Source of the DNA: Takakia lepidozioides
Taxonomy: Eukaryota; Plantae; Bryophyta
Reading direction: 5' to 3'
Length of the DNA stretch: 64,000 bases
Assembly: GCA_030704615.1 (NCBI GenBank)
Contig: CM060734.1
Span: 6,014,001 to 6,078,000, forward strand
Shown: in pieces, positions 15,125-43,212 of the stretch
Numbering within the stretch: the stretch's first letter is position 1
How the letters are laid out: every line of letters starts with the position of its first letter
Made by a program: the position numbers and the translations under genes
The notes under the pieces: generated by a model
What the model was told of the DNA's origin: nothing
The model's database searches: none
What the model saw: only the letters and a program-made list of their open reading frames with translations

Positions 15125-15499
15125 TGGGTCCTGAAAATTGTTGACCTCGATATACCAATCTAGAATGGGATGCCGGACAGATCACGCACGGCCTTGCTTT
15201 GGCGCTGGAACTGCTGCCAGTGGACCAGGGAGGACGGCACCGGGGAAAACTATATTCGTGGAGTTCACTCCGCTCTTCCAGTGTATGGAGACATTCGGCT
15301 GAGTTGCGAAGACAAATTGCACAGGCACATGAGGCCCACAATGACCTTGTCAATGTATGATGGTGGTATCATTGATGGGCATGACATTGTCGTCAGCTCC
15401 ACCAAGGGCACCAGAACGACCGCATTGCAGTTTACCTGGAGGTGCCGCGTCAATAATGAGCTTGTTTTGAGGGCTATCGAAGTTCCGTCGACTTGGTGA
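15125..15499 (+). pseudogene. Unknown small protein, paralog 2 (element C cargo)
   Basis: HGLALALELLPVDQGGRHRGKLYSW [frameshift] VYGDIRLS...LSMYDGGIIDGHDIVVSSTKGTRTTALQFTWRCRVNNELVLRAIEVP aligns with paralog 1. Confidence 0.6.
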
Positions 15500-15774
15500 C
15501 GCCCATGTAGAAGGCGGAAGGGTTTAGATGTGTTTGGAGTTGCTAAATGTGACACACCGTGTTTGATCAATAAAACAACCCATCATCCCTCACTTCTGTG
15601 TGCTGAGTTTCATTGTATTCAAGAACTGCTGTAATTGGCCCACTGTTTACAATTTGTCGTCTCATTTCTACAATATGTCTGTCCACATCAATATATCAGA
15701 GTCAGCGATATCAGAGTCATGAGGTGTAGGAAATCCATCTATGAGTAAAAGGAAACATGTACATGCCCAAGCTC

Positions 15775-16425
15775 GGAAATGCGGCACCGCATTTCATTTT
15801 TTTCCATGCAGCGATTTTCGGCAGCTCCCACTCCTCCGTTCTGGTCGTAACGGAAATGCGGTACCGCATTTCCTTTCTTGACATGGCATTTCCATACTTC
15901 GAATTCCAAATGCGGCACCGCATTTCCATATTCGACCTTGAATTGTCCAAGCATGTCCAATCGCCAATGCATGTCCATGTCCGTTTTGGAAATGCGGCAC
16001 CGCATTTCCGTGTCCGTCATCGAAATTTTGTATTGGACAATGGAATGCGGCACCGCATTTCCATCCAGCACAATGGAATGCGGTGCCGCATTTCTGTCGA
16101 AGGGTCTGGAATTGGACAAACAACGATGTCCGTTTTGGAAATGCGGCACCGCATTTCCATGTCCGTCATCGAAATTTCGTATTGAACAATGGAATGCGCA
16201 CCGCATTTCCGTCCACCACGATGGAATGCGGTCCCGCATTTCCGTCGAAGGGTCTGGAATTGGACAAACATCCATCTCCAAAATGGAAATGCGGCACCGC
16301 ATTTCCATGTCCGCCATGGGAATAACGTGTTCGACCTCCGAATGCGGCATCGCATTTCCATTTACCTCAATGGAAGGAGCTGACAATCGGCAAAACTTCC
16401 ATGTCGAAAACGGAAATGCGGCTCC
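15775..16425. repeat. Array of the palindrome GGAAATGCGGCACCGCATTTCC (about 13 copies), 3' of the copy C ParB-MTase gene
   Basis: Directly visible; higher-order unit of about 170 bp. Confidence 0.92.
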
Positions 16426-18629
16426 CCTTCCACCCCCTCATTGCCTTTCTCATGTCCAGCGGACTGCTCGTTGGCCAGGCTTTCGAAAATCCCATCTTCC
16501 CCTTGCGGAACTGACCATCTCACCTCCGTTGGGTCGTCCTCCTCCCTGTATGCATCGCTCTCTTCCGCTGAATCACATATATACTTTCGCACCCGTCTAC
16601 CTATCTCAGCTGCTGCTAACTCTTTCCTTATCCTTTTGTCCTCCCTAGCCCTCTCCAAAATCAGCTCTACTTTACTGGGATTCTCACATCGTCTAATCGC
16701 TGTATTTGCAAGTTTAGCTGCATAACTAGGAAGGGAGTAGTCCTTCACCGGGCTCTTCATGAAGTCGGTCCTTGCAAAAAACGGGACATTCTCCCTGGCA
16801 AGAAATGTAGGCGCCACTGGTTTCGACCCAGATCTTGGAATCCTGCACATAACAATCACCCACGAGACCAATGAGAACCACAGTCTGGAAATGCGTGTGA
16901 TAAAAAATCACCCAGAAGGCTTTGCAAACTTACAATGTTTGCACTCACTCGTATTCCGGGTTCTCCTCGGCATCAATGTCCACTGTCTCTTCCTCCGAGT
17001 CCGACAAATCATCCGAGGAATCTTTGGCTTCGATGGGAGCCTTCACATTCCGTTTAAGCCCTCTCAGATGGGATCCCCAGACGGATGTGTCCTCCTCGTA
17101 GGCAAAGAGGTGCCGGTCGGAAAACCGCCCAACCCACATTGAGGCACCTGTTAGAATGGCATCCACTCATGAAAACATGACCCTTCAAATATGGCAAATT
17201 TGAACATAATGAGAATTTGCAGAACAGCATAGTACAAGAATCTGCATACCTGTTCCACAGATGAGGTCCAGCACTCTACCCTCCAGGTCAGTGCATGCCT
17301 CCATAATTGTGTGGATGAAGGCAGGGCTCCGAGTCCATGAATACCGCAGGGGATCCGTTGAAGTGAGGCTATATTGAGGGAGGAGTTCCGTGGGAATGTT
17401 GTTGAACAGGACGTCGTAATCGATGGGGTTGCAGTTCGGGTTAACCAACAATCCATCCTTCCGGAAAGCAAAGGTCGAGTTCTCCTTCACAAAGCAGTAT
17501 GCATCGAACTGCTTTGTCTGCATACACAGTGGGGAACGATTAGAAATCGAATGCAGCACCGCATTTCAAAACAGCTTACAAGATGAAAGGACGATTGCCA
17601 ATGTCGTAATTACCTTCTTCCCTTCCGACCGAAGGCCCAATATGTTGATGCATGTCCACTTCTTCTTCAAAATTGGGACAGCGCTCTTGCGGGTCCACTT
17701 CGCAATTCCTGCCTCCGTGTTTTTGCCTCTGCTCGCCAGGACAACCACACAGCCTTTGTCGTCCAACAACATGCGGGCGAGTCCGAATCTTTTCTTCCAA
17801 AAGTCCTCGGAGTACCTGTTCCAAGATGACAAAGCTTGCAATCCTTCCATAGGCTCTCCATCCAGAATATCCAAGATGATCATATCGCAAGACCACTCGG
17901 TGGCTTTTCCGCCCCTCCTGCAATCCTTCCCTGCACACGCCTTCTCAAAGAACGAGACCATCTTCAGAAACCCAGGGGTGTCGGAAGGCTCTTCGTCAGC
18001 CGCCTTCTTCAGTGCTCTGCCCTTCAGACCCTCCATGGTCTTGATGTATGCCAACTTGGCTGCCCGTCCATCCAAAGCCGCCAAGAAACTCTCATTGACA
18101 CACTGAACTATTGTTTCTGGCTCCACTTTCGGCCTCTTCATTTCCACCGGCTCGAAAGGGTGCCCCCCTGGGGAGTTGAAGAGTGCCTTCTTTGCTGAGC
18201 CTATTCTCGTCCCTTCCGTGACAACAATGGGCACAGGGGATTTTGGCTACGTTTTGGGGGGTGGGCTAGTTGCAAAGTCTCCATCGGAGTCCTCTTCGTC
18301 AACCTCTTCATGTTCTTTCTGTTTCTGCTTCTTTGTCTTCTTGGGTGTCACAACTGCTACTCCTTGCTGGCGAGTCCTCTTCAATGACCCCTTCTATTGA
18401 GCCTACACAGCTGCATCCACCATCTTCCATGCCATCTCAGCTACCTTTCTGGATTGTTCCAGAGTAGCAGCGTCCTTTGCCGACTCAGGCCCAGCAGGGA
18501 CACGTCTTTCCTCTCTCTTCTCCTCCGCTTTCTGTGCAGATCTTTCTCCAATTCGTCAACAAGTCCGCCAGACATGTCCAGGTACCACGGGCATCCAACG
18601 AGATGCGCGGCAAACCAGCCAATGCCAGC
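16400..18629 (-). pseudogene. Copy C ParB-MTase gene, 3' part (MTase-like domain and last exon)
   Basis: WFAAHLVGCPWYLDM; DMIILDILDG; FDAYCFVK; RSPAFIHTIMEACTDLEGRVLDLICGTG|ASMWVGRFSDRHLFAYEED; last exon IPRSG...NVPFFARTDFMKSPVKDYSLPSYAA; intron positions shared with copies A and B. Confidence 0.85.
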
Positions 18630-18634
18630 CAATA

Positions 18635-19360
18635 TGTCACGCACCTCACTTCGGTAAGCTCCCCTTCAAGTCATAGTTACTTGCTTGATGCGCGCGCCTA
18701 ACTCCCAAACTGGCCACCGGGCCAACTCGGAGCTTCGGCTGCTCACCGGGGCATAACGGTCCCCCATTACTCCTCCACTAGACCCTCTCCCAATTTGGGC
18801 CTAGTGGAAATTCCCTTTGGTCGATGGCAGTCTGGAATAGCTCCCCACACCTTGGTCGCTTTCCGGCTCGCATGTTTACTCACTAGTTTTTGGACACCAA
18901 CGGGCTTGCACCGTTCTCGGGGTTACTACTCCCTATATATACTTCTGTGACTGTCCGCGGGGGTTTCACAAACAACACCACCATTTTATGGCAAACCACC
19001 ACGAAAACCCTCGATTCCCGGTGATGAGTCACGGTGAGTCTTGGCCCACCCACCACGGTCCCCTTGGACCGTGCTGAGTCCCAAGACTCCCCACGACTCC
19101 CACCACAAGGTCTCCGCCCCCATGGTGAGTCCTATGCCACCCCCACTAAGTCCCACTAAGCTACCACCACCCCTTGTGGAGCCACCCCCACCGCAACCCG
19201 GTGTGCGGGGCTCCACCTAGTGAGTGCCTCCGCCTCCTCGAGTGCTTTGGGCACTCGAGGTTGCTTCAGCCCCCCGTACCTATTGCTGCCACCGCCCCTA
19301 CCACAGGGGCAGCCCCTCTGCGACCCGACCCCCCTGCCCTCAAGGCAAAGGGCCGTGACA
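18635..19360 (-). repeat. 3' LTR of the chromovirus
   Basis: TG...CA termini; purine-rich PPT-like GGTAGGGGTGTG immediately upstream on the - strand. Confidence 0.95.
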
Positions 19361-19994
19361 CACACCCCTACCAACATGGAGTCGATGTCCTCATCGACTT
19401 GTCCATTTTGTAGAAACGAACATCCAAGTTGTGGCGTCCCACATCAAGGAGTTTGTTTTGGCACCATGGCGTCCCATGGCTAAGAACCAAACCCCCACTT
19501 GACTCTTCTCTCCACTAGCTAGTTCGGCCGACTTCCTCCAAGTCCTGGCCAAGGGTGGAGCTTCTCAAGCTCCTCCCAGTGCACTCTTCTTGACCCACTT
19601 CAGGGCCAAGGATCGATCCTCCCCGAGGATCGAATCGCCTTACTGCAACAACATTTGCTTGCGACCGCTCGTGATGTCGCTTTTGGCATCACCTTGAGCA
19701 AGGGTTCTCCTTGAACCCTTTTTTACTAGGAAGATAACCTTGAACCAACCGTGCGCCTCAATCACTACAATTGGGTCCGCTTTGGGGGGGCTGCTATTTC
19801 ATGAGCGGCATGAGCATGAGCGGGAAAAAAAAAACATGAGCGGGCCATTGTCTGTCCACGGAAATAGGGTTAGGAGGCACGGAAATAGGGTCATGTGGAC
19901 TCGTCATAGCAATGAAATGCAACATTTTATTGCAAATTTGGTGGCAAGCCACGTCTATACAAGTGTGTCCTAAGTGTCATAGCAGGAATGGGAA

Positions 19995-22900
19995 CTACTC
20001 TCCTACACCTTCCGAGGAACTTGGCCCTCCTTCTTCCTCATCCCCCTCATCCCCCCCATCCTCCGAGCTCTGTGATGCATCGGTTGCAGTATGCCTGTCA
20101 AAAATGCCGTCCTCTCCTTGGGGGACTGTCCACCTCACCTCATGGGAATCTTCTGCCTCTTCTCCCCCACTTTCCTCAGTAGAATCCAAGACAAATCTAC
20201 GAGCCCGACGGGCTCTAATAGCTGTTGCCTCCTCCCTCATCTTTATTTTCTTGAGGCTTGCCTCGTCTAAAATCTGCTGTACACGACTAGGTTCGGAACA
20301 CCTCCTAATGGACACCGAAGCAAGCCGGGCAGCATAAGTAGGAAGGATGTAGTCCCTTTCTGGACTAGGCATGAAATCCCCCCTGGCAAAAAAAGGCACG
20401 TTCCTCCTGCCCATGAACTCCGGTGTAGACTTCCCTCCTGCCGTACTTGGCATCCTAAAGTAAGAACAAATCCACTTCAAGAATGTCAATACCAGCAGAA
20501 GTAGAAAGGGTTTTCAATGAAATAAGAGAGCGAAGGGAGGTGCCTCACGAAATCTGGAGGCAACTTACAATGCGACCACTCACTCGTACACCGGGGGCTC
20601 CTCGGCCTCGATCCCAACTTGTTCCTCCCCCTGCTCCTTCTCGGATTTTTCCTCATCCTCCGAGGATGCCTCTTCCTCTTTCGGCAGACGTTCAGCCGCT
20701 GCAAGTTCCGAGTTGTGGAGGGCAGTATCTGGCTTGAAGGCGAACACATGCCTGTCGGACAACGTCCCTGCCCACATTGAAGCACCTGAGGAACAAAGCG
20801 GGCGGTTAATAGCTTACGGCATGCAATTGCAATCGGGCCAGGGGACAAACTGAGCACGTGAAGGCTTACCCGTGCCGCATGTGAGGTCCAGAATCCGCCC
20901 TTGGACATCCGAGCACGTCTCCATGAGGGTTTGGATGAAAGCAGGGCTCCGGGTCCGGCTGTACCGCCACGGTTTGCCTGTGTTTGTGTCCTTCGGCATA
21001 CTGGAGTAGGGCACATAGTTGTAGAGGACATCGTAGGTAACAGGGTCCACAACGGCATCAATAAGACGACCGTCGTTGCGGAATTTGAACGTAGACCCTC
21101 TCTTCACAAAGCAATATGCCTCAAACACCAATGTCTACACATCCAACAAAAGAGGGATCAACTCCGGGATCTTGTTTAGATACACCACAATATGAGGTGA
21201 ATGCAATAGATTGATAACTTACACTTTGGCCCTCTGTTCGCAACCCCTGTGTATTGATGCAAAACCATTTTCTGAGGAGGACCGGGGTGACACTTTTCGG
21301 TGTCCACCTTGCCACCGCATTCTCTGTGGTCTTCCCTCTTGTGGCAAGGACAACCACACATCCACCGTCATCCAGAAGCATCCCCGCCAGCCCAAACCCG
21401 GCTTTCCAGTAGTCCTCAGTAAACCTGTTCCAGGTGGGCACACCATCCAGGCCCTCTAGCAGCTCCCCATCTGGAATGTCGAGGAGAATCATGTCGCAAG
21501 CTCTCTCCACCTCAACCCCCCCCCCCGAGTGCTCTTGCAATCCGTGCTCACAGCCGTGAAGAATTCCATCATGGCTTCAAAACCAGGGGTGTCTTTAGGC
21601 TCTGTACCGGCAGCCCTCTTCTTGGCTTTCCCCTTCTGCTCCGCCAGAGACTTGCTGTGTGCCACCTTCTTTGCCCTGGCAGCGAGAGCGTCAAGGAAGC
21701 TGTCATTGACGCATTGTGATGGTTGGAGGTTCTAGCTTTGGCATGTGCGTAAACGTCACCGCCGAATACCGTTGTGTAGGCTCGCCCTCAAATGCCAACT
21801 TCTTGGCAGAGCCAGTCCCACTCCGAACTGACTTGGGAACCCGGACGACCGGTGACTGGGTAGCAACAACAGCAGTCACAGGACCTTGAACAAAGTCGTC
21901 ATCCGAGTCACTCTCTTGGGTCCCCTCCTGCACCTCCTCCGATGCCCCGATGGTTTTCTGTTTTTTGGGTGTTACTGCACTCACCTGTTTCCTTGTCCTT
22001 TTCCTTTGGCCTTTACTCTTCTCATTCAATTTCTCCTGAATTCCTGCCTTAGCAAGCTCTGCCGCTTTCTTGGAGTTCGCAAGCGCTTTTGCCTCTTTTG
22101 CATCCAGCGGAGGCAGCGGAGCCCGATTTCGTCGGGCCTCCGCATCCAGCTTCAATTGAAACTCGGATGGGTCAAGCGAGCCGGGCGGAAGGTCCACATA
22201 CCAAGGGCAATCAGGCAAATGTTCCAGATGCCACTCCTTCACAATATCGTCAGTGTACATGGAGTCAGCCCCAGGGTTCCTCCATGCCAGGAAGAATGGT
22301 GGCTCGAAAGACAGATGACCTTTCTCCAAAAGGGAGAACTTGCAGTACCTGCATTCATGAAAAACACAATGAGGTCCCTGAACTGCAAATTCGGCACCAT
22401 TTTCCCAGGTTGGGGCGGATCTGAGTGGGCCTAGAAATGGAAAAATGGCGCCGAATTTCGGTTTTCGGTGATTGCCACCCTAGGGACTTAGCCATCTTGG
22501 GAGCCCTGAACTAGAAATTCGGCGCCATTTTTCCCGGTTTGGCCCGAAGATGGCTAAGTCCCAGAACGGCAATAGGGCCTAGAACTGGAAAAATTGTGCC
22601 GAATTTCCAGTTCAGGGCCAGCCATCCTAGGGACTTAGCCATTTTCGGAGCCCTGACTGGAAATTCGGCGCCATTTTCCCAGGTCCGGCCCGAAAATGGC
22701 TAAGTCCCACAAGGGCAATAGGGCCCAGAACTGGAAAAATGGCGCCGAATCTCCAGTTCAGGGCCAGCCACCCTAGGGACTTAGCCATTTTCGGAGCCCT
22801 GACTGGAAATTCGGCTCCATTTTCCCTAGTCCGGCCCGAAAATGGCTAAGTCCCACAAGGGCAATAGGGCCCAGAACTGGAAAAATGGCGCCGAATTTCC

Positions 22901-25900
22901 AGTTTAGGGCCAGCCACCCTAGGGACTTAGCCATTTTCAGAGCCCTGACTGGAAATTCGGCGCCATTTTCCCAGGTCCGGCCCGAAAATGGCTAAGTCTT
23001 AGAACGGCAATAGGGCCCAGAACTGGAAAATGGCGCCGAATTTCCAGTTTAGGGCCAGCCACCCTAGGGACTTAGCCATTTTCGGAGCCCTGACTGAAAA
23101 TTCGGCGCCATTTTCCCAGGTCCGGCCCGAAAATGGCTAAGTCCCATATGGCCTTGACCTGGAAAAATGGCGCCGAATTTCCAGTTCAGGGTCGGCCACC
23201 CTAGGGACTTAGCCATTTTCGGAGCCGTGATCTGGAAATTCGGCAAAAAATGCAAGGACTGAAAGGAAGGCATCGCGTATGTACCTGTACAGAAGGCGCA
23301 TTGTTGCTTTGTCCGCGTTCGGCTGGTCGGTGAACTCGTGGCTCCGGCGGGCATGTGGTATCTCCCGAAAGAATAGGTCGGTTTTGTAGAGCAGAAAGTA
23401 CCTCGTCACATAGTCGTGTAGGCTCTCTGCTGCAGGAGAAATCTCCATCTTGAACTGATGTGCTTGTGTGTCCAGCTGCTCTTGCGCATTTGTCGTCACC
23501 TATGGAGATTCTCCATCAGATCGCATTGCTGAAAAAATACAATGAATCCACCCCCTACAAGAGTAGAAGCGCCAAACGAAGCGTGGGGAAGTACCTGAAA
23601 CCACCATGTCATGCGGTTCATCCACATGTCGAATGTGGGGTCAGACAGTTTGTCCGGTTTGGGGAAGCTCCACATGTCCCTTGTACTTTGGGAACCATTC
23701 CAGATTTGGAGCCACCGGGTCTGTCCAACCACCCAGCATATTCGTAAGCGCCAAACACCACAAAAACGAGTTGTTGCCACCACAATTTGGTTAAGAATGT
23801 ATCACCTTTTCTGCACCATCCACACAGGATGTGGCTAGACGATGGAGCTTCTCCAATGTCATCGTGGGCTTCAGAGCGCGGGAGTAGTGCTTCCCCACCT
23901 CCACCAGAAAGTCGGCACCAAGGGCGGGATCAGCTATGGCCACGTACTTTACCATCTGCGACTTGTACTTTATGCGGGCCCTCACCTCCGCAGCTTTGAG
24001 ATACGATTCGAGTGCCTGGAGGGTTAGATTCTTCTCCTCTAACTCCATGTAGAACCTCCGCGCATGTGCCAAATCCTGCTGAATTTTCTTCTATTGGGGG
24101 AGGAGAGACAGATTAGCTCAACAAAACAGTCAGGATCTTTACCCGAAATATGTAGTCCACCATGGCGTCCATGCTCAGCCTATACCAGGTTCTGTCTGCC
24201 TTTGCCTCCGACTTGCGCAGGAGGTCGGCACTGAGCGAATTGGCAAACTCTTGCACCCCCTGCTTCCCGACATCCTTCACTCGGAAGAGCATATGGGACA
24301 AGTTGGTGGCAATGAAGGCATTCTCAGTCACCCTGCAATGCCACATTTCCATCAAACAATTCTGAAATGGGAATTTACAACAAATATGAGGATTCGCAAT
24401 GAAGGCCCCGCAACCTTCAGCACAACACACTCCACGGCAAAATGCCAATCGAGGTCGTTGGGGTGGGCTTCGGCTATGTGCTCCATCCATGCCAGGAAGC
24501 GATGATTGTCGTCCCACACGTAAAACATCTTTCCGGACAAGTGCTGGAAAAGAGGATCAGTAACAATCGATCTCTCGAACTCCTCATTTCGCCTTTGCCA
24601 ATGGGGACCCCATTTGTCCACCTCATCGGAAGTGTGGGCACGGGAAGCTCCGTGGTCGTTCTCAATGGAAACGTAAAACGCGGCAGACCCCATTCGATAT
24701 CCATCCCGGAAAGAGAATTTCAGCTTGTCGATATCGCCTGGGAGGGCAGGTCTCACCACCTGCAAAGACACCAAGCGGCAAAGGGGAATTCAAAGCTTGG
24801 CCGGGTACACCATGCCCCCCAGCACCCTGCCAATGTTGCTGTGGGTTGCCTCCAACATCTTGGCAGCGGCCAACTTCATATCCGCCTCCGACATGACGTC
24901 TGCTGCAGAGGGGTTCTCCGGCAGCCCACCAGGACCGCCAAATCCAGCCTGTATGCTGCGGGTTTGGGGCCTGGGGATGTCCGGGAGGATGTCATCCTAG
25001 TCAGAAAGCTCAGTGTCGTCCTCCTCAACATGGTGAACCACCGGCGAAACCACCTCGAGCACTCTCCCTGTCTCTACTGCCATCTCCCCGGCTTCACCTT
25101 GAACTTGCACAATCCGTGCTCTTTGTGGTGTTCTTTCCTCTCCTCCACTCTCCACCGTATGGGTAATTGCGGGGCTGCTCTTGTCCGCAATGGTGTAACC
25201 GGTGTGTTACTGCCTCTTTGTGGTGTCTTGGAGGGATCCACCGTCTCTGTGCGTCCCTCGCTTACATTGGCATCTGTCATTTGGGCACCCCTGGCCTCTT
25301 CAGTGGCCTTTTCTCTTTCCTCCTGGCTAGCCTTCTGTCTCGCCTGTTCTTTTGCCCTCTCTTTTGCCCTCTCACTGGCTTTCTGTTTCTTACTAGGGCT
25401 AGCAGCAGGGGAGCCCGGATGGACGACCACCTTTGATTGAGGCGAACTGACACCCTCGCGCGCACTGCTCACTCCCCCCTCCGCAGCCCGTGACGGCTCT
25501 CTCGCCGGGGATTGCATGTGCTTAGCTTTCTTCTTCTTCTTTGCGTGGGCGGGCCCTACTGCATGTGCATCAACAACCTCCATTGCCGGATCTGCTGTCC
25601 TCACGTCCTCACGCCCTTCACCTGCCATGCCGCCTGCACCAACCTCCCCAATGCCTATTCTGTCGTACCCTCGCTGCAGGTCCTCCCGTCCACCAACAAA
25701 AGGTTGAAGTTTGCCCTCTCGCCCCAAGTTGGGCGATTCAAACATGCGATGAGTTGGAGCGGTCGATGATACCATCAGCGTGCCGGGCTCGTCGTCACTT
25801 TTCCCAAAATCGTCAGAACCAACATCGGTGCCAAAACCAGCATCGCAACGAGCAGCGCAACCACCATAGCAACAATCGTGGAACAACAATGAAAACAAAA

Positions 25901-26213
25901 CAAGTTTAGGAAGTATGGAGTGCCATGGAACAACAATGAAAACAAATCCAACCAATGCCTAAGAATGACATGCACAAGCAGCCTTCTCCAGAGCTGCCGG
26001 CTTTGCACAAGCATTGCAAACTATCTAAGGTTCACTCAACCGGTAATATGAAACACGATGAACAAATGATTAGGAATTCCATAAGACAGGAAAACAGGGT
26101 GAAATGTTTTGAAGGCACTTCATCTTCTCAGCTCAGCATGGATTTCCTTAATTTTTAACCACTCAGACCTTGATCATTCTTCGCAACAGCTGCTGCTTTT
26201 GCGATGTAGCCAT
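19995..26213 (-). pseudogene. Copy B ParB-like/N6-N4 methyltransferase-like multi-exon gene (disrupted)
   Basis: IPLCRLVSLQVVRP...FYVWDDNHRFLAW (ORF 24352-24774); middle exons 24250-23280; WHLEHLPDCPWYVDLP; DMILLDIPDG; RSPAFIQTLMETCSDVQGRILDLTCGTG|ASMWAGTLSDRHVFAF; last exon ends at 19995; several stops and frameshifts; start codon tentative. Confidence 0.85.
22380..23245. repeat. Intronic tandem array, unit about 146 bp, about 6 copies, with internal inverted repeats
   Basis: TAGGGACTTAGCC recurs at 22481, 22628, 22774, 22920, 23065 and 23202; each unit holds GGAAATTCGGCGCCATTTTCC and its inverse, and GGGACTTAGCCATTTTCGG and its inverse. Confidence 0.95.
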
Positions 26214-26689
26214 ACGCTTCCAGCAATGCCAGGATGAAGATGCAAAAACAAAGCGAAAGCGAAAGCAAAAGCAAAAGCGAACAAAGCGAAAGCAGAAGTG
26301 GCTTGCCTGAGAGTACTCGGCTTCAGTTGGCGCGGGTTGTGAGCAAGACACTGGAATCTCCTGCTGGAGCTTAAGTTTGGCCATGCGAGAGATTGGTCGT
26401 CGTCCGTAGTACAAAGCTTTCAACTTCCGCGCGGCCTGGATGTGAGGTCTCTCTCAGGAGAGCTACGCCCTTCAGGCGGCATAAGTCCCAGCCAAAATGG
26501 AAAAAGATCTCAGTTTTTTGGGGTACATGCCACGAATAGAAGTTAATCCAAGATTAGCATCAGATTTAGGGTACGTATCGAGGAAGCCATGTGTCGCCAG
26601 CCCGAATAAAAACGGACGGCGGTGGACATTTAATGCCCAACTACGCAATTAAATGTCGGATGAAGCCCTCCCTGTTGGATGAAATATGA

Positions 26690-27600
26690 TGCAACTCGGC
26701 CCGGAATTTCCAACGTAGAGGTAATTCGGAGCGCAGATGGATGGAAATCCGGCGCCAGATTTCCATCCGCCAGGTACGGCGGCGCGCAAAATTTCCGTCA
26801 TGCAGGTAATTCGGAGAGCAGCAGGATGGAAATATAGCGCCGAATTTCCATCCTGCCAGGTAGGGCGTCGCGCGAAATTTCCGTCTCGCAGGTAATTCGG
26901 AGCCGGATGGATGGAAATCCAACGCCGGATTTCATCCTGCCAGGTAGGGCGGCGCGCGAAATTTCCGCCACACAGGTAATTCGGAGCCGGATGGATGGAA
27001 ATCCGGCGCCGGATTTCCATCCGCCAGGTTGGTCGGAGTGCGGATGGATGGAAATTCGGCGCCGGATTTCCATCCTGCCAAGTAGGGCAACGTGCGAAAT
27101 TTCCGCCACGCAGGTAATTCGGAGCCGGATGGATGGAAATCCGGCGCCGGATTTCCATCCTGCCAGGTAGGGCGGCACGCGAAATTTCCGCCACGCAGGT
27201 AATTCGGAGCGGATGGATGGAAATCCGGCGCCGGATTTCCATCCGCCAGGTTGGTTGGAGAGCGGATGGATGGAAATTCGGCGCCGGATTTCCATCCTGC
27301 CAGGTAGGGCGGCGGGCGAAATGTCCGCCACGCAGGTAATTCGGAGCCGGATGGATGGAAATCCGGCGCCGGATTTCCATCCTGCCAGGTAGGGCGGCGC
27401 ACGAAATTTCCGCCACGTAGGTAATTCGGAGCGGATGGATGGATTTCCATCCGCCAGGTTGGTCGGAGAGCGGATGGATGGAAATTCGGCGCCGAATTTC
27501 CATCCTGCAGGTAGGGCGGCGCGCAAAATTTCCGTCATGCAGGTAATTCGGAGCGGATCGGGATGGAAATTCGGCGCCGAATTTCCATTTGCCAGGTAAA
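26690..27600. repeat. Tandem array (85-bp and 53-bp subunits) built around the palindrome GGATGGAAATCCGGCGCCGGATTTCCATCC
   Basis: Directly visible; lies between the two divergent genes of element B. Confidence 0.95.
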
Positions 27601-27759
27601 TCGAATCGCCGAATTACCTTCCTGCGGGTAATTCTGAGCATGGCCGCTTGGTTTTTCGGAGAAAAACAAACTAAACTGTTAGTTTTGTGGCTGAATTCCA
27701 CTTTTAGACACGTTTTTCATGGAATCCTTGACTGCTAGAGGGAAATCCGAACGGCCTCG

Positions 27760-29450
27760 GACGGAAATTCGGCGCCGTTTTTCCATCCTGGGAGGTTTTT
27801 AAATCGTCCAGTTTTGGGCCTCACCACCCGACCGGACTTCCTTTGAGGGGGCCCGGATGGAAATTCGGCGGCGAATTTCCATCCGGGGGATGGTCTCTGT
27901 CGGACAGGTGCCGGCCTCTACGCCCGAGGCGACTTCGTCCGGGCGTCCTCTGTTGGATATTCGGTGCTGAATTTCCATCCGGGGGTTGAAATGTGACGGC
28001 CAGGTGCCGGCCACTCCCCCCTCCCCGACTGCATCCGAACCACCCCGCACGGAAATTCAGCGCCGTTTTTCCATCCTGGGAGGTTTTTATATCGTCCAGT
28101 TTTGGGCCTCACCACCCGACCGGACTTCCTTTGAGGGGGCCCGGATGGTCTCTGTCGGACAGGTGCCGGCCTCTACGCCCGAGGCGACTTCGTCCGGGCG
28201 TCCCCTGTTGGATATCCGGTGCCGAATTTCCGTCCGGGGGTTGAAATGTGACGGCCAGGTGCCGGCCTCTCCCCCTCCCCGACTGCATCCGAACCGCTCC
28301 GCACGGAAATTCGGCGCCGTTTTTCCATCCTGGGTTATATCGTCCAGTTTTGGGCCTCACCACCCGACCGGACTTCCTTTGAGGGGGCTCGGATGGAAAT
28401 TCGGCGGCGAATTTCCATCCGGGGGATGCTCTCTGTCGGACAGGTGCCGGCCTCTACGCCCGAGGTGACTTCATCCGGGCGTCCTCTGTTGGATATTCAA
28501 TGCCGAATTTCCGTCCGGGGGTTGAAATGTGACGGCCAGGTGCCGGCCTCTCCCCCCTCCCCGACTGCATCCGAACCGCCCCGCACGGAAATTCAGCGCC
28601 GTTTTTCCATCCTGGGCGGTTTTTATATCGTCCAGTTTTGGGCCTCACCACCCGACCGGATTTCCTTTGAAGGGGGCTGGATGGAAATTCGGCGGCGAAT
28701 TTCCATCCGGGGGATGGTCTCTGTCGGACAGGTGCCGGCCTCTACGCCCGAGGCGACTTCGTCCGGGCGTCCCCTGTTGGATATTCGGTGCCGAATTTCC
28801 GTCCGGGGGTTGAAATGTGACGGCCAGGTGCCGGCCTCTCCCCTCTCCCCGACTACATCCGAACGGCCCTGGATGGAAATTCAATGCCGTTTTCCCATCT
28901 GGGGAGGTTTTTATGTCGGCCAGTTTTCGGCCTGCCCCCCCGACATGACTTCGTTTGGGGGGGCCTGGATGGAAATTCGGCGCCGAATCTCCATCCAGGG
29001 GATGCTCTCTGTCGAACACGCGCCGGCCTCTACGCCCGAGGCGACTTCATCCGGGCTTCCCATGTTGGATATTCGGTGCCGAATTTCTGTCCGGGGGTTG
29101 TAATGTGAGGGCCAGGTGGCGGCCTTTCCCCCGAGCCGACTGCATCCGAACGGCCTCGGATGGAAATTCGGCACCGTTTTTCCATCCGGGGAGGTTTTTA
29201 TGTCGGCCAGTTTTCGGCCTGACCCCCCGACACGACTTCCTTAGGGGGGATCCGAATGGAAATTCGGCGCTGAATTTCCATCCGGGGGTTGTTCTCTGTC
29301 GGGCAGGTTCCGGCCTCTCTGCCCGAGGCGACTTCATAGGTGCGGCCCCTGCTGGATATTCGGTGCCGAATTTTCATCCGGGGGTAGTAATGCGACGGCA
29401 CGGTGCCGGCTTCTCCCCTTCAGCCGACATCATCCGGACGGCCCCCCACT
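27760..29450. repeat. Tandem array, unit about 288 bp, about 6 copies, each with about 3 GGAAATTCGGCGCCGAATTTCC-type palindromes
   Basis: Units start near 27761, 28049, 28303, 28586, 28873 and 29160. Confidence 0.93.
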
Positions 29451-29681
29451 TTCTGACTGCATACCGTTGGCAGTTATTGCGCAAAGACCAGGGGCCGCAT
29501 TCCTGAGACAAGGTTCATTAACACTTTGACTGTGGATTTTTGAGATAGTTGGCTCCCTGGATTTGGATCAGGCTTCGTCGCTCGGACAAATCGGCACCAC
29601 ATTCCTTCCCATCGCTGCATCCCCCTTCTACCAGGGAGCTTGCCCGCACGCCATCCTGGGAGTCTTGTGTGCACATCTCCC

Positions 29682-32600
29682 ATGGTGGAAAACCCGAGCG
29701 CTACAGTGTACTGCCCTCCTCACGAGCATAGAGCTTCATTTCCGTGCAGAGGGGACATCTGCCGGGTGATGGAGAAATATCTGTGCGTTCGATACCACCT
29801 GAAACCGGGGTCGGTTTTTTTGGAGGAGGAAAGGAAGGACTCAAACGGCGTTGTTGTCGAGAGTATTGTTGTGCTCCACGATGATTTTGGCGATGGCAGG
29901 GAATGACGAGTTCCACCATCAGACAGCGTCATATACAGGGCTGTTGGGGACTTCATTTGCCCGCCAAATGCACCTTCTATCCTGGCGCCTTCCACGAAAC
30001 AATCCGCGAATCAAAGAGTGTCTACCTCAAAGAGAGAAGTCCGCAACGAAGTAAATCCAGAGCCGAACCCATCCATGAAGACGAGCGAGAACCGGGTTGT
30101 TCACAACCTGTCCGACTCAGACGAGGTCATGGAAGTTTCGAGGTCGTCCTGGAGATCAGGCAAGTCCTCAATGGACGTCAATGGACGAGGGAGTCATATT
30201 CCCAGCACGAGCACCGCAGTTCGATCTATTCTTGAAATTCTGCGAGGGCTTCACATGGAGGGACACCACTCGGAGCTGGCCGGGCTGGACTACAGCAAGT
30301 TTGCAATTAAATCGGTTACATGCCTTCCCGCAGACGTCGACGGTAATATCTTCTTTGAGTTCCCTCCTCGGACGGACTACTCGAGGGCGTCCGGAATGTT
30401 GACAGATATGGATAGAAAACATGATGGTCATCCTTGGTGCGTCACCAAAACCACCAGCATGAAGATGCTCGATGGTGTGCGGGTGCGCTACGTTGTTTGT
30501 GCGGGTGCGTTGCGGTGTTTCTCCCCAACTTGCTTCCACTTTAAATCCAGAGGTCACAGGAATGAGACCGATTGGACAGGCACAGCTCATCAACCATTTC
30601 GTGATCAGGTGAAGGTTCCGAACTCCACATTTAAGTGTGCGCATTGCCAAGAACCACCACACTGCATGTCTGTTTGTAATGCCAAGCAGTTCTATGTGTT
30701 GCACCGTTTCCCTGACCTCACCCGAGCTTGCATACACGTTGGTTCCCATTGTTACAAATTGGCGAGGGGGAACTCGCGGGAGGCTGCCCACGAGGCAGAG
30801 CAGCTCGTTCAGGAAGAGGTTAAGTTGAGACCGGGTGCCAAACTCAAACAGATACAGCTCCAAGCCGCCCATAAGATGGCCTTGGCCAGAATTATGTCGG
30901 AAGACAGCTCCGATAGAGTTCCTCTCGATGAGAAGGAAATGGAGGCATTGCTGGAGTCGGTGTCCCACGTATGTTCACCGAATGTCCGAAACCACATTGT
31001 CTCATGCAAACAGAAAATTGGGCGTGGCTCGGATATGCACTCCATTCTGGAGATGAAGCGACGATGTGGATATGACTACATTCATGGAAGTAGGTTTCCA
31101 GGACAAGGGACTGAGGCAGATCGTTGTTTCGTATTCAAAATGTCCACGTGTGGACCTGGCAGTGGCGTTGAACTGGTCGACAGGATGACGAGTGGGGACT
31201 TGTCAAACAGTTGGGTCATGTTCGACCATATCAAGCAAATTACAAATCACCAGTGGGTGACAATGGGTGCACATGTCTACGACACCCACTGCAGGATGCT
31301 AATAACAATTGCTATTTGTGAGATAAAACGAGAGGACACACAATCGGAGATGCTTCTTTGGCAGGGAATAAACGAACAGATGGCCAAGGCGGGATTGCCC
31401 CCTCCCAATTTCCGTGGTTTCATGGCGGACAACGCACAAGCAAATTGGGCTGCCATTCGAAGGGTGTACGGGCAAGACCGCAATGTTCCCATGGAAGGCA
31501 AGGAGAGATCTTGTGGGTTCCATTTTCTGCAGAGCCTTTCACAGTACACAACCAGGCTTGTGGCGCCAGATTTCAGAGAGGAGCACCGTTCCATGTGTCT
31601 TGCGTGGAAGCGCCCTCCCACCTTGGATGATGCAGAGACACAGTTTGCATGTATACGGGCTTGGTGGACATCGTCAGGTGCTGTAAGGAAATCAGACGAG
31701 GGAGCAATGGTCAGTTGGCTTGCATGGTGGCATTATCGTTTCCTCTAGTTCGGTGACTATATGCGGGAGGTGAGTTGCACGAATTCGCGTCCCGTTGAAT
31801 ATTATTCTTGGCATTATTTGTAACTTGCTTGTAACCTCAACATGTGCTTGTGCAGGAAATGTGTCTCGACTCCGACACCAACATGCCCACGACAAACATG
31901 GCCGAATCAGTGCATTCTTCCTGGCGTGCCTTCTCTGCGGCGCATCTGCTGGACATCCTCACTGCCACAACGGAGGACATTGTGAGGTCAATTATGCAGC
32001 AATGCAGGTACAACGAGTTCTTGAAAGGGAAACAGTGGGGCTTGGGGCCGGACACGCAGGAAATGCTGATGCGGACTGCCTCCAGATCGAAGAATCCTCG
32101 GAAGTGGGCGGCGGCCTTGCGAGAGGGCCTTCGGGACACGCCATTGCTTCGAAGATGCCAACATTTGGAATGAGATGTTCATACCCGTCCAGTGAGACAA
32201 AGACTTGACGAGGCACCTGGCGGGGAAGAGGATTCATGGCGAGCTAACAAGAATATTCGCACGCTCCCTCGTGGTCCCGTGATGTTGCCCGAGGAGGTCT
32301 CGTCGAGCACCGCAAGTCCTGCACGTTCAAGATTGTCATCTCCTTTGAGCACAGGGCACGTGCCCGAGGAACATAACAAGCCATCTGTAATAACGCAGTA
32401 CAACATACCCATTGTGGAGACAAGAGTGTCGGAGTCACACTGGAGAATTGCAAGGACATTGCCGGCATTTCGAGGGAAGTGTTGCGCCATTTGGGTGGAT
32501 ACGAGAGCACGCTGTGGTGAGATGATTCGGAGGAACCCACACGGTGCTGTACCTGTACCTTGTTTCAGCGGCAGATTTTTTACTCCCACATTTGCTCACG

Positions 32601-33274
32601 CCACAACGCAGACGTTTTGGTTCTGTAGGCACGACATAATGACCTGTGTATTTGACAAGCCCAAGTACGGGATTCAGGGAATGCCGAAGCCTCCGGGCGT
32701 CTGGCCTGTTGCACCGGGTTGCAGCCTCTCTCAGAATGAGGCGGATGCTCTATCTGCAGCAGGATTTCGAATGGTGCAACGCACAGACGTCCCAGCCCAC
32801 GCATTTCCAGTTCCTCAGACCCAGCCATTGCAGACTGGTCGGTCCAGTAGAGACGGATTGGACAATTCTGCACATCCCACAATGCGATTCGGAAGAGTGA
32901 AGAGACGACACCTTCCCAACAAGTTGAATGAGACTCGGATTGCCAATGCTCTTGGGATGGCTTGCACTATTCAGAGCTCCGTGGACGTACCTCCACCCGG
33001 CCTTGGGCGTGTTTATCGGATGGCAACGGCCGGCTCGGCTGTACGCGACGATGTATACACAATTAAGATTGGAGTGGAGCCGACTTGCAATTGTACGGAC
33101 TTCTCGTTGATGGAAGCAAAGAAGGGTTCAAAGTATTATCCGTGCAAGCATCTGTATTACATTTACCTGAAGAGGTTGAGGATGAACGTGACTATTGATG
33201 ACTTTATTTATGCACCGGCGTTGAGCGTGAACGAGCTGCACAAACTCCTCCTTAGGGATTCCAGAAATCATTGA
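29682..33274 (+). pseudogene. Element B Mutator-like transposase (GCM-like Zn domain, DDE, SWIM) with three premature stops
   Basis: DRKHDGHPWC...VCAGALRC...CAHC...GSHC (GCM-like); VMFDHIK, FMADNAQAN, CGFH, NMAESVH (DDE with CxxH); CNCTDF...CKHLYY (SWIM); intron 31770-31855; stops at 29904, 31746 and 32171. Confidence 0.88.
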
Positions 33275-33419
33275 TGGGGCAAAGGGAATCCTCCATATGG
33301 ATATTTTCAATTGCATTTTCATGTATCAGACTTTTTTTTGCAGTGTAATGAAATGCACCCCAAAACTCTTGGAATGAGGCAATATTCCATTCAAACTGAG
33401 ATCCAACAGAAGCAGTTGT

Positions 33420-33830
33420 GGGGCCATTTCTGGAAAAATGGCGCCAAATTTCTCTATTTTGGGCCGAAAACTGGCTAAGTCCCAACATGCACTGGTACCC
33501 CTGTGTCTGGAAAAATGGCGCCAAATTTCCCTATTTTGGGCCGAAAACTGGCTAAGTCCGAACATGCTCGGGAACGGTGTCTGGAAAAATGGCGCCGAAT
33601 TTCCAGTTACATGGCCCAGAACTGCCCAACATCTGTGCAATCCCCGGCACCATGTACCGAAATTCGGCGTCACATTTCCAAATTTTGGGCTTACACACCT
33701 GTCATGAGGGGACCTATAGCCGCGGAATTCGGCACCATTTTTCGCTAGAGAGACCTATTACCGTGAAATACGTCGCGATTCTTTCCGGTTACGGACCCTA
33801 TTACCGCAAAATTCGGCGCCATTTTTGCAC
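33420..33830. repeat. B-type palindrome cluster in the 3' subterminal region of element B
   Basis: GGAAAAATGGCGCC(A/G)AATTTC and GGCTAAGTCC motifs are shared with the intron array at 22.4-23.2 kb. Confidence 0.8.
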
Positions 33831-34545
33831 ATGTCGTTGGGAATTGGCATGAGCGGAAGACGAAATATCATGAGCACAACTCTCAAAACTACAATTTCCC
33901 CTTCAAGGTGCCGAATAATATATATTTTTTCTGACACATTCCATTAAATTAATGTTTTATAATGTTTTTTATTTTCGAAATTTGTACTTCTGCTCATGAA
34001 AACCGATTGTCTTGCTGCTCCGCTCATGCCGCTCATGCTCATGAAATAGCTAACCTCCGCTTTGGAATGCTGGCCTGAGGTACGGGAACACGCCGAAACC
34101 GCACTATGACTTTGTCCCGAGGCTACACAATTATAGTACGTGAACGGAAGCACGTAGCTTCCGCATTAGCCCGCACTACAAGGCAACCCCCTCGGTAGCG
34201 CACTTATAGTACGCGCACGCGCCAGGTGCGCACTAGCACGTGAACTCCCAACGAAGGTGCAAGTTTCCTTGCCCCTTGGGTGGGAGTCACCCGATTTCGG
34301 CACTACACAAACACACGATTAATCCAATTTACCTCTCCCACTTTGTAAGCTTAGCATGCATTCTACACACTAGCCAACCATACCATGCATCACCATTCCA
34401 AACAAAATAGGACGCACAACATTTGGAAACCATTTCTTTTATAACAAAATTTGTACAATACAAGTTTTTGCAATTGGATTCCTGAGCTAGCTAAACCGGG
34501 CTAAGCATGCATTTCCTCCCCCACGCTCTAAGGTTGATGTCCCCA

Positions 34546-37500
34546 TCAACGCTTTTTCCGCTTTTGAGGTCGCCCTTCGAAAGCTGCAACCGCCTCGAAT
34601 GCATTTCCCATTTCTGAGGCACGCAACCAAGATGCCTCCACATGATGATAGCCCTTCCATTTCACGAGATACTCCGTTTCTCGATTCTTGAACCTCCTCG
34701 ACTTAAGCACTGCCTCCACCTCGTACTCAAGTTCATTTTCATGATCCAACAACACAGGTGGCGGACGCAACACTTGAGGCCGATTCGGACGCGCTTCATC
34801 TTTCAAGTAAGGCTTCAAAAGGGAGACGTGGAATACCGGATGCACCTTGCTGTTTGCCGGCAGCTCCAATTCATACACATCCTCATTCATAACCTTCCGG
34901 ATGCGAAAGGGTCCCGCATACGGAGGTACGAACTTTGGACTCACTTCCGGAGGTAGTCGAAATTTTTTGATGTTCAACCAGACCTCCGTGCCTGCCTCAA
35001 ACTTAACCTCCCTCCGCTTCGATTTGCTTGCCGTTCATACCATTTCCTAGTTTTGGCAATGTTGTACTTTGCGAGCTTCAACAAACGCTCGCGTTCTTCC
35101 AGCACTGCCGCTGCTGCCGGTTCCTCAACGTCTTGGGCGGCCCAACTTGTCGGCACCAGAGGTGCTTTTCCATAGACCAATACGAAAGGGGAAACTCCTG
35201 TTGCAGATTGTTTTGTGTTATTATAACAGAACTCTGCCGCATCCAAATGCTCCACCCAGTCCGATTGGTCTGCCGACACGTAATTCCGCAAGATCTACTT
35301 CACCACGGAATTCGCCCTTTCCGTTTGGCCGTCCGTCGTAGGTCGGAAGGCGGTGCTCATTTTGAGCCTCGTCCCCATTTTCTTCCAAAGTACCCTCCAA
35401 AATTTACTAGTAAACTTTGGATCGCGGTCCGAGACAATATCCTTCGGGAGTCCATGATGCTTGAAGACGTGGGCGAAGTAAAGTCGCCCCGTCTCCTGCG
35501 CCGTTGCTGCCTCCTTGGTGGGGATGAAATGACCCATTTTACTGAACCTATCCACCACCACCATGATTGCGTCGAATCCTTTTGACAGCGGCATAGCAGT
35601 CATGAAGTCCATCGAGAGACTTTCCCAAGACCCCTCTGGAATCGGCAAGGGTTGTAACAGCCCCGCTTGCTTTATGTACTCGCTCCGGTTTTGTTGGCAT
35701 GTGGTGCATGTCTTGACATACTCCTCGGCCTCCTCCCTCAGTTTGGGCCAGAAATACTTTTTCTTCAGGAGTGCCGCGGTGCGCTTGGCTCCGCCGTGGC
35801 CCGCAAGCGGGCCATCATGGCATTCTCTTGACTATCTCTGATCCCTCCCATCGGCACATAGAGACGTTTTTGCTTATACCGGAGCAGTCCATTTTGCAAG
35901 TGGAACTGTGATTTAATCCCCATCCTCAAGTCCCGCGTCACGGACTTCGCCATCTCATCCTTCCGGTAAGCCTTTCGAATCTTCTTTTGGAGCGCCGTCT
36001 CGCCCCTGTACACCATCATGAGCTGCTGCTTTCTACTTAAAGCATCGGCCACCACATTGTCCCGTCCCGGTTTGTACTGGATATCCACGTCGAACAGTGC
36101 CAAAGTGTCTTGCCACCTAATTTGTTTTGGGGACAACTTAGGCTGCGTGGCAAAATACTTCACCGTGACATTGTCCGTGAACACCTTCACCGGGTTGGAG
36201 CCAATATAGTGGCACCAAAGCTCAAGGCAATGCACCACCGCCTTCATTTCTTTCTCGTGCGTTGGCCACCGCCGCTCCACTTCATTCAATTTCTTACTTT
36301 CGTAAGCCACTGGACGTCCCTCCTGCATGAGTACACCTCCAATCGCGAAGTCCGACGCATCCGTATGAATCTCAAATGGGCGGTCGAACTCCGGGATTTT
36401 CAGGACTGGAGCTTCCGCCATCCGCTGCTTCAACTCGGCAAAAGCTTGGCCACAAAAGGTGTTCCATACCCAGACTTTGGATTTACACAGGAGGTCTGAC
36501 AGCGGCCCCGCAATCTTGGCAAAATTTCTCACATACTTTCGGTAATAGGAGGCGAGTCCTAAGAAGGATTGCACTCCTGGGATCGAAGTCGGAGGCTCCC
36601 AGTCCAAGATTGCTCTCACCTTTCTGTCATCCATTTTGATCCCATCTAGTGTAATCACATGCCCCAAGAACTCCACTTTTGTGACCCCGAATTCGCACTT
36701 TGAAGCTTTGGCATATAGCTTCTCTTCCCGTAATTTCTGGAATACCCTTTTGAGGTGCTCCAGGTGCTCTTCCTTTGTTTTCGAGTACACCGAGATGTCG
36801 TCGATGTACAAAGTTGTCCAACCACTCCTGGAAAAGGCTGTTCATTAGCGTGCTAAAGGTTGCGGGTGCGTTGGTGAGCCCAAAGGGCATCACTAAGAAC
36901 TCATAGGAACCATACCTTGTCCTGCACGCGGTCTTTTCTTCATCTCCTTCCGCCACTCGAATTTGATGATATCCGGAGCGCAAATCGATCCGGCTGAAAT
37001 ACTTCGCTCCTGCCAACCGATCGAAGAGGTCATCGATCCTTGGCAAAGGGTATCGGTTTTTGATAGTCACCTTATTTAGAGCCCTGTAATCGACACACAT
37101 CCGCAGCGTCCCATCCTTCTTGTCTGCGAATAGCACCGGGGCTCCGTAAGGTGACTTACTCAGCCGAATGTACCCCTTTGACATTAGATCCTTGAGTTGA
37201 GTCTTCAGCTCGACCAACTCTCTGTGGCTCAACCGGTAGGGTGCCTTGGCAGGCGGCTCCGATCCCGGTATTACCTCAATTTTGTGGTCAACTCCTCTTC
37301 GCGGTGGCAAGCCGCTTGGTAAATCCTCCGGTTGTCTTACGTAAAGCAAAAACTGGGGCTCGTGTGGCTCCTCCACGGCCCACTCCCTTGCTGACAAAAG
37401 GTTTATTCGCCCTCCCACGGGGTTGGGCGTTTCCGACACTCGTAAAACTTCGCCACCATTCCCACACGGTAGCGTGACTACTCTTTTGCGGCCATCTATG

Positions 37501-39073: not shown

Positions 39074-39074
39074 G

Positions 39075-39801: not shown

Positions 39802-39806
39802 CAATA

Positions 39807-42748: not shown

Positions 42749-42764
42749 AGAATAATCACTAGCG

Positions 42765-43067: not shown

Positions 43068-43212
43068 AAGTTATTTCAAAGAAGGGATAGAGAGAGATAG
43101 AATAGTCTGGCATCATTATGTATTAGTCGTATAGTGCTTTCCCCAGCGAAAGAACTCTAGACTAATTGATCTTTTCTTTTAGGATTGATCTTAGTTTTAT
43201 TCTACATCTTTT

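Follow-up and report, generated by a model that had tools for sequence, protein, structure and literature searches.

Accessory genes for ParB-like domains and DNA methyltransferases are already published for algal transposons. The giant DNA transposon Sola1-1_Ec32 of the brown alga Ectocarpus has a 1,104-aa ParB-N4/N6 methyltransferase gene opposite its transposase, and the authors propose self-binding and self-modification (PMC12477816). In the red alga Bostrychia, PAG2 and PAG3 are carried by Plavaka elements, with homologues on Mutator elements of Chondrus, and a self-modifying role was proposed (bioRxiv 10.1101/2025.02.11.637652). In this work we describe element B, a DNA transposon likely of the Mutator type, in 64,000 nucleotides of the moss Takakia lepidozioides (contig CM060734.1, positions 6,014,001 to 6,078,000; this whole stretch is called the window, and coordinates are those of the window), together with its relatives A, C and D in the same window. 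Its accessory (cargo) gene is predicted, from sequence and structure models, to encode a protein in which a helical middle region separates a ParB-like domain from a beta-class N4/N6 methyltransferase fold. What is new is a Mutator backbone in a bryophyte, one fused gene kept in both mosses and liverworts, and candidate targets that are defined and specific to each family. No land-plant description of such elements was found in the literature searched, with most subscription journals and Repbase outside its coverage.

By published architecture, B is like Sola1-1_Ec32 in the fusion of a ParB-like domain with a methyltransferase on the strand opposite the transposase, and differs from it in the backbone and the host (Sola1 in a brown alga there, Mutator-like in a bryophyte here). 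The accessible parts of that paper describe no target palindrome, while candidate palindromes are present here. With PAG2 and PAG3, B has in common the ParB-like domain, a PF01555 methylase and inverted repeats in tandem arrays next to the ParB gene. In the red algae, however, these are a ParB-2OG oxygenase and a methylase-SET protein in a three-gene cassette of a CACTA-type element, and here there is one ParB-methyltransferase fusion.

Function is shown for VANC of the Arabidopsis VANDAL elements, which targets tandem repeats that lie in introns and in upstream regions (PMC5735166). Like VANDAL, our elements are of Mutator type and have an accessory gene and family-specific short motifs in non-coding tandem repeats. 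VANC differs in having DUF1985 and DUF287 and a 9-bp non-palindromic motif, YAGTATTAY, and the comparable function is only proposed here; neither DUF had a Pfam match in the window exons or their homologues. Among bacterial clamps, KorB imposes and VirB counters silencing at a distance (bioRxiv 10.1101/2024.02.16.579611). The accessory protein is like ParB, Noc, KorB and VirB in its predicted ParB/sulfiredoxin (Srx) fold, its GxxRxxA motif and candidate palindromic loading sites of similar length, and unlike them in being eukaryotic, intron-bearing, fused to a methyltransferase and without ParA. Host genes for an N4-methylcytosine (4mC) methyltransferase with canonical TSPPY and shown activity are known in Marchantia (MpDN4MT1; bioRxiv 10.1101/2021.02.12.428880). 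The likeness is one of class, a beta-class amino-methyltransferase in a bryophyte, and ours is a transposon gene with the motif DxP[D/E/T/F].

The Atlas comparison gave the ParB-like exon of A (52880-53533) a language-model feature likeness of 0.94 to fungal DUF3723, which is a lead only, with fewer than 170 common features, the family on under half of the cluster members and no alignment. DUF3723 proteins are conserved cargo of Starships (PMC9156397), giant mobile elements that differ in using a tyrosine recombinase.

Element B, its ends and its transposase

The features of B outside the accessory gene are as follows.

19778..19785, plus strand: target-site duplication (TSD) CGCTTTGG, left copy (flank comparison, contigs)
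19786..34057, no strand: element B, Mutator-like DNA transposon, 14,272 bp (pair of terminal inverted repeats (TIRs) and flanking direct repeat; empty site in public runs X2, X5 and X7)
19786..19841, plus strand: left TIR with four inward CATGAGC subterminal repeats (read from sequence)
29682..33274, plus strand: transposase of about 1,168 codons with a GCM-like domain, DDE core and C-terminal SWIM-like finger (alignment, fold search)
31770..31855, plus strand: GT-AG intron of the transposase, phase 0, matching intron 49296-49180 of A in position and phase
33992..34057, minus strand: right TIR with four inward CATGAGC repeats (read from sequence)
34058..34065, plus strand: TSD CGCTTTGG, right copy (flank comparison, contigs)

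Element B is a real transposon with short, imperfect TIRs. The left end reads GGGGGCTGCTATTTCATGAGC from 19786, and the right end reads GAGGTTAGCTATTTCATGAGC as the reverse complement from 34057. The 7-base termini agree at three of seven positions and the next 14 bases are identical, giving imperfect TIRs of about 21 bp accompanied by subterminal repeats. In a scan of the whole window, exact 14-bp inverted pairs flanked by an 8-bp direct repeat made up 12 rows in two places, the ends of B and one internal C/D repeat (0 in five shuffles). The empty site of B, with a single target copy, was seen as loose ends of contigs in X2, X5 and X7, the X2 contigs coming 31 times from the right side and 25 times from the left. 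Public contigs matched to both ends show that other copies of B carry different flanks. Their match ends on the right at 34057 (X5 piece 22, X7 piece 31 and two X7 loose ends) or at 34058 (two further X7 loose ends), and on the left it begins at 19785, one base outside B (two in X7, one in X13). From these limits a duplication of 8 bp fits best, with 7-10 bp possible, and 8 bp is most likely. The metagenome loci described below are older copies in which a scan for TIR-plus-TSD pairs found no credible ends, so the TSD length is without an independent check. The first-pass annotation had claimed a complete element at 19786..34057 with two genes head to head, and both points are borne out by the TIR pair, the flanking CGCTTTGG, the empty site, and the transposase (plus, 29682-33274) standing opposite the cargo gene (minus, about 25960-19998).

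A and B had been described there as having distinct subterminal repeats. This was not upheld: one subterminal motif, CRTGAGC, is common to the ends of both, mostly pointing inward, and the two versions are alike up to one transition. Of 28 matches in the window, 21 lie in five 200-bp ends, which make up 1.6% of it. The motif is likely the transposase site.

The DDE core of the transposase has the motifs MFDH, FMAD and CxxH, with NxAE in exon 2, and the alignment shows an invariant Cys/His pattern. Foldseek with the transposase model (mean pLDDT, the predicted local distance difference test, 64.6) placed ISCth4, a member of the IS256 family, in all of the top four rows, with expect values (E) of 1.7e-4 to 1.3e-3. 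In the VIA comparison ISCth4 reached Z 8.3 with a root-mean-square deviation (rmsd) of 3.5 over 169 aligned residues. RAG1, Hermes, the GCM domain (1odh) and P transposase followed behind it in Foldseek and VIA, 1odh with Z 5.4, rmsd 5.8 and 132 aligned residues in VIA and E 0.033 in Foldseek. In a wider structure search helical bundles dominated and ISCth4 came fifth. The SWIM finger matched Pfam below the cutoff (E 0.015 and 0.007). Sequence searches of the PDB were uninformative, and Pfam on 30 open reading frames (ORFs) of the window gave only sub-cutoff SWIM and F-box matches. Motifs and fold matches thus support the first-pass assignment of a Mutator-type transposase.

A search of 5,505 candidates found 26 homologues. 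Transposase ORFs of homologues break off at the shared intron position. Over 510 columns the A and B transposases have 42% identity, the identity of B to the 16 other family rows is 34-42% throughout, and A groups with P0001 from another sample (60%, support 99/94), to which it is closer than to B. The split between A and B is therefore deep, in agreement with the old, diversified lineage proposed earlier; the long branch of B makes its own placement in the tree unsure. The tree holds this family and one distant animal-like protein, with no reference clades of Mutator-like elements (MULEs). A scan of virus contigs gave 45 stretches that fit the pattern and no true relative. Among 36 candidates in genome contigs one was a relative, on a 4.1-kb contig of a cyanobacterial metagenome-assembled genome (L001:518-2059); it falls inside the plant family in the tree and is probably contamination rather than transfer. 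The distant transposase P0026 (21-26% identity) lacks the shared intron break and has a weak MULE match, which suggests relatives outside plants.

The accessory gene and the family palindromes

The accessory gene and the palindrome arrays of B are placed as follows.

About 25960 to 19998, minus strand: accessory gene, ParB-like domain, helical region and beta-class methyltransferase fold (5' end approximate; broken in this copy)
24409..24801, minus strand: ParB/Srx-like exon with a DGNHR-type motif, DDNHR in this copy (alignment, fold search with a homologue)
22349..23284, minus strand: 936-bp cargo intron with a 146-bp tandem array bearing the B palindrome (skipped in an X13 contig; equals A intron 54653-55594)
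20577..21521, minus strand: methyltransferase exons, motif IV DIPD and motif I DLTCGTG (introns 21222-21135 and 20869-20786 spliced in an X13 contig)
26719..29449, no strand: spacer arrays of 85-bp and 96-bp units with most copies of GGAAATTCGGCGCCGAATTTCC (repeat analysis)
33429..33680, no strand: small palindrome array behind the transposase (repeat analysis)

The cargo genes of A and B are homologous. Removal of seven GT-AG introns from the A cargo leaves 991 codons without a stop, and the spliced product aligns with Ceratodon protein P0110 over about 910 residues (31% identity, E 7e-130). Five cargo introns are common to A and B in full and a sixth by its acceptor only, the B donor being lost; A has a private intron at 56247-56359 and B one at 23805-23721. 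With the one transposase intron, the shared intron positions reported earlier are confirmed. Identity of the cargo protein across moss and liverwort families is about 20-40%, and the species-named homologues are only from Ceratodon purpureus and Riccia sorocarpa. At E <= 0.001, 856 proteins match P0110, 150 of them among the matches listed. Many host genes annotated as "hypothetical" or "trimethylguanosine synthase" belong to the cargo family (Riccia P0191, P0202 and P0263; Ceratodon P0173 and P0260). A C-terminal (Y/F)SLPxYA motif is common to B, C, D and several of the Riccia and Ceratodon homologues.

For the methyltransferase domain, P0110 matches Pfam N6_N4_Mtase (PF01555) above the cutoff at residues 903-1119 (E 4.9e-7). 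Of 21 further proteins, six give matches too weak for the cutoff (E up to 0.022), and single cargo exons of the window have no Pfam match. All ten listed Atlas rows are N6_N4_Mtase clusters. The order of the motifs is permuted, motif IV before motif I, as in the beta class. Motif IV is DIPD in A and B and DILD in C, and DVPE, DAPE or DLPT in others. An aromatic residue appears in a minority of homologues (DTPF, DQPF, DIPW), including P0110 with DTPF. The moss and liverwort families largely retain D and P in motif IV, the WN downstream of it, the acidic residue in motif II and the order of the strands.

The ParB/Srx fold was tested on a model of the Riccia homologue P0193, with pLDDT mostly 75-97 over residues 160-320 and the fold at 163-328. 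The first seven Foldseek rows of its N-terminal half were Noc, ParB or sulfiredoxin. VIA gave KorB (Z 7.8, rmsd 2.7, 95 aligned) and PadC (Z 7.5, rmsd 3.1, 99 aligned), with Pnob8 ParB (Z 6.2) and Srx (Z 6.1) in lower rows. GxxRxxA defines the ParB/Srx motif. In 42 rows its G is kept in 40, R in 40 and A in 37, with an upstream R in 40 and a downstream N in 38; in B itself D replaces the G. The middle region has a weak match to the ParB DNA-binding domain 6s6h (Z 5.3, rmsd 5.9, 123 aligned). Identity of the ParB exon is 61% between B and C and 46% between A and B; the ParB tree was built by a quick method only.

The B family is multi-copy, with many near-identical copies. In one sample, 50,311 pieces from X1 and 32,137 from X2 match the right-hand stretch, and 40,849 of the X1 pieces are at least 95% alike to it, contig depth in public runs being no copy number. 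This copy of B is dead. Its transposase has three stops (29904, 31746, 32171). The cargo gene is interrupted by a stop at 24790-24792 and by frameshifts near 21716 and 21516, and the splice donor that should follow the ParB exon is gone. The earlier statement that both B genes are pseudogenes is thus right for this copy and does not extend to the family, which is not shown to be dead. Two lesions could be followed in other copies among the differences listed. About 99% of the depth in X1 and X2 lacks the stop at 32171, and the two bases that this copy has lost at 21716 are retained in X5, X7 and X13 and in roughly half of the X2 depth. Splicing is seen in two contigs of X13 (kind "RNA?", one study): the first carries three methyltransferase exons with two GT-AG introns removed, and the second skips the 936-bp intron. 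These spliced contigs differ by 2-4% from this copy and so derive from sister copies. For the transposase stretch no RNA run was listed, which counts neither for nor against it. Compared with the X1 majority, the differences of this copy run mostly in the C>T/G>A direction (108 of 240 listed places).

Every family carries a distinct palindrome of 18-22 bp, with a core CG-N-CG-N-CG that holds three CpGs: GGAAATTCGGCGCCGAATTTCC in B, GGAAATGCGGCACCGCATTTCC in C and D, and GAATGTCGTTGACGACATTC in A. With up to two mismatches allowed, B holds 16 of the 17 B-type sites and A all 6 A-type sites, all 17 C-type sites fall in C or D, and no site was found outside the elements in the window. B- and C-type sites number 45, against 0 in 100 shuffles. 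B has its palindromes in three places, namely the spacer, the 936-bp intron and the stretch behind the transposase; A has them in the corresponding intron and in the region upstream of its ParB exon. The B and C palindromes differ mainly at one symmetric pair of positions and that of A differs more, so that palindrome divergence goes in step with the divergence of the cargo protein as read from the ParB exon identities. The first-pass view that each subfamily has its own termini and palindrome therefore holds for the palindromes and is overstated for the termini, B and C having the same terminal 15 bp.

Metagenome contigs were scanned with the ParB alignment, and of 181 relatives 80 were kept, which collapsed to 44 loci, in which the order of the cargo exons is conserved. 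Six of the 21 loci with at least 6 kb upstream have a transposase there on the opposite strand, head to head; one of these six has an inverted internal piece. An 18-bp palindrome with core CGGCGCCG was found at 82 sites in 20 of the 44 loci, against 0-1 per shuffle in 20 shuffles, and 80 of the 82 lie near the start of the ParB exon (49 within 2 kb upstream, 31 at +1 to +3 kb). A search with the core left free gave 49 sites, which had almost only CGGCGCCG or its C>T/G>A products.

Proposed function and competing explanations

We propose that B is a broken copy of an element whose accessory ParB-methyltransferase protein binds the family palindrome arrays and marks or shields the element against host silencing, and we give this about an even chance of being right. 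The transposase would bind the CRTGAGC repeats and excise and insert the element. The accessory protein is predicted to dimerise on the 18-22 bp palindrome, to bind a nucleotide, probably cytidine triphosphate (CTP), and to spread along the element as ParB, KorB and VirB do. Its methyltransferase domain might write 4mC or N6-methyladenine (6mA), or block host 5-methylcytosine at the three CpGs of the core. The outcome would be a family-specific anti-silencing like that of VANDAL VANC, in which palindrome and protein diverge together. Binding, CTP use, methyl transfer and the direction of the effect are predictions by analogy with the known systems. The full form of the proposal, a CTP-dependent ParB-like clamp that loads at a parS-like palindrome, slides, and writes 4mC or 6mA through a non-canonical beta-methyltransferase in bryophyte Mutator elements, is improbable as a whole.

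Several observations weigh against this proposal. The catalytic consensus of the beta class is (D/N/S)PP(Y/F/W), and this canonical motif is not found in A, B or C; since most members have no aromatic residue in motif IV and motif I too departs from its canonical form, the protein may have no enzyme activity. The matches to ParB are weak, with no Foldseek E below 0.001 and no Z of 8 or more, ParB was not found by profile search of the PDB, and no helix-turn-helix was identified in the helical middle region. Among the metagenome loci, 24 of 44 have no match to the tested palindrome, and 15 of the 21 long loci have no transposase within reach. The palindrome pattern was derived from the same loci, which inflates the count of sites and leaves their clustering unaffected. 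In old copies the palindromes show C>T/G>A decay like that of methylated DNA, and together with the same direction of change in the B copy this means that any protection is not lasting. No member of the family matches Pfam MULE, the one match in 16 rows being the distant P0026 (E 0.18).

The variable and rarely aromatic fourth residue of motif IV, with a motif I that varies as well, could mean that the methyltransferase domain is catalytically dead, and that the protein is a palindrome-binding scaffold which blocks host methylation or helps the transpososome to assemble. An inactive methyltransferase domain has a precedent in transposons, in DIRS1 (PMC4738411). Against this, the motif IV and motif II residues named above, with the WN and the strand order, are largely kept at about 20-40% identity, and P0110 carries DTPF and passes the Pfam cutoff; we regard the scaffold as possible but doubtful. 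The protein could also be a KorB-like self-repressor that, once loaded on the palindromes separating the two promoters, shuts off or restrains the transposase of its own element, any methyl mark then being repressive. The best VIA match is indeed KorB, a long-range silencing CTP clamp, and the largest arrays lie between the divergent genes. A study of bdelloid rotifers reportedly tied 4mC to repeat silencing. But arrays also occur in the intron and behind the transposase, as the targets of VANC do, and the high copy number of B fits promotion better than restraint, without excluding restraint, so self-repression seems unlikely to us.

The palindromes might be unrelated to the cargo protein, and either be bound by the GCM-like domain of the transposase or have arisen as a side effect of tandem duplication. 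Activation of cognate copies by a Mutator transposase on its own is known (bioRxiv 10.64898/2026.08.24.746577), and with the C transposase not in the window, covariation of the palindrome with cargo and with transposase is inseparable. We find this distinctly unlikely: the ends already bear the separate CRTGAGC motif as the natural transposase site, the palindromes keep their two positions around the cargo gene in loci without a nearby transposase, and inverted-repeat arrays lie beside ParB-like accessory genes on the unrelated CACTA backbone. The backbone itself could come from a DDE superfamily other than Mutator that also makes 8-bp duplications, such as hAT, P or one not yet described. Such an assignment would fit the 8-bp TSD and the very short TIRs, the Hermes and P-element rows close behind ISCth4, the missing Pfam MULE match and a tree without reference MULE clades. 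ISCth4, however, is first in Foldseek and VIA, and the RNase H-like DDE core is nearest to the IS256/Mutator type. The combination of GCM-like (WRKY-GCM1), DDE and SWIM domains is the architecture of MULE transposases (PMC1702500), and the TSD lies within the 8-11 bp range of MULEs, which typically have long TIRs and include groups with short ones (PMC6446971, Table 1). A superfamily other than Mutator is thus very unlikely, and with no Pfam match and no reference clades in the tree, membership in the MULEs is likely, not proven. Among these explanations we prefer the anti-silencing protein that recognises its family palindrome.

Nested elements and the meaning of the accessory genes

The other elements of the window are as follows.

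3846..5047, plus strand: fragment D, inverted copy of the last cargo exon of C with a palindrome array, 84-92% identity (window self-comparison)
13114..41734, minus strand: element C, split by a long terminal repeat (LTR) element; B-like left terminus at 13114, cargo exons at 16365-18630 and 39815-41005
18635..39803, minus strand: Ty3-type LTR retrotransposon hosting B; LTRs at 18635-19362 and 39075-39803, target duplication CAATA
47188..58481, no strand: element A, 11,294 bp; transposase on minus, cargo on plus, palindrome GAATGTCGTTGACGACATTC

B lies inside the Ty3 element, which in turn interrupts C. The LTRs of this Ty3 element differ at 20 of 729 sites. The left end of C (13114) is identical to that of B in its first 15 bases and has further subterminal sequence in common with it. 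C has its own palindrome arrays, and its cargo gene has an internal deletion, about 2 kb being absent where the LTR element sits. The right end and the transposase of C were not found within the 64-kb window; the transposase may lie beyond it, behind the second Ty3 element. Element A sits inside this second Ty3 element, with one frameshift in its transposase near 49880 and a degenerate target duplication (5 of 8). This nesting and the identity of the cargo gene, both absent from the first-pass annotation, are the most informative parts of the window.

Smaller features were also seen. Fragments of a Copia-type reverse transcriptase are at 10-1034, and four copies of a further short palindrome, of the ACGGGAGATCTCCCCT type, lie outside the named elements at 6444-7126. 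A solo LTR at 8491-9217 is 89% identical to the LTRs of the B host element and has a short TTCTT repeat on both flanks. Plus-strand ORF fragments at 9382-12381 have an acidic low-complexity stretch and are uninformative in Pfam; they are perhaps the cargo of another element. By eye they had appeared methylase-like, and none of five family profiles matched them. In the left part of C, 13537-13869 and 15185-15536 form an inverted pair with 66% identity, which may be a nested element or an inverted piece of a gene that has diverged. Two short F-box-like ORFs, the first with Pfam E 0.006 (under the cutoff), and a coiled-coil ORF lie ahead of the second Ty3 gag at 42425-44383 and are perhaps borne by the retroelement.

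The algal papers proposed ParB-like accessory proteins that bind and modify the transposon carrying them, and their accessible parts hold no test of it. The window offers testable material: an intact cargo ORF in A and three diverged families, each with a candidate palindrome. The CG-N-CG-N-CG core, its conserved positions in distant samples and the annotated homologues of Ceratodon and Riccia can serve as well. If the anti-silencing proposal is true, it would be a second anti-silencing chemistry, unrelated to VANC, and 4mC and 6mA signals in bryophyte genomes may stem from transposons. The full form of the proposal, if true, would also mean a sliding-clamp regulator in the plant nucleus, and a transposon-borne DNA methylation other than 5-methylcytosine in land plants with its specificity set by a palindrome.

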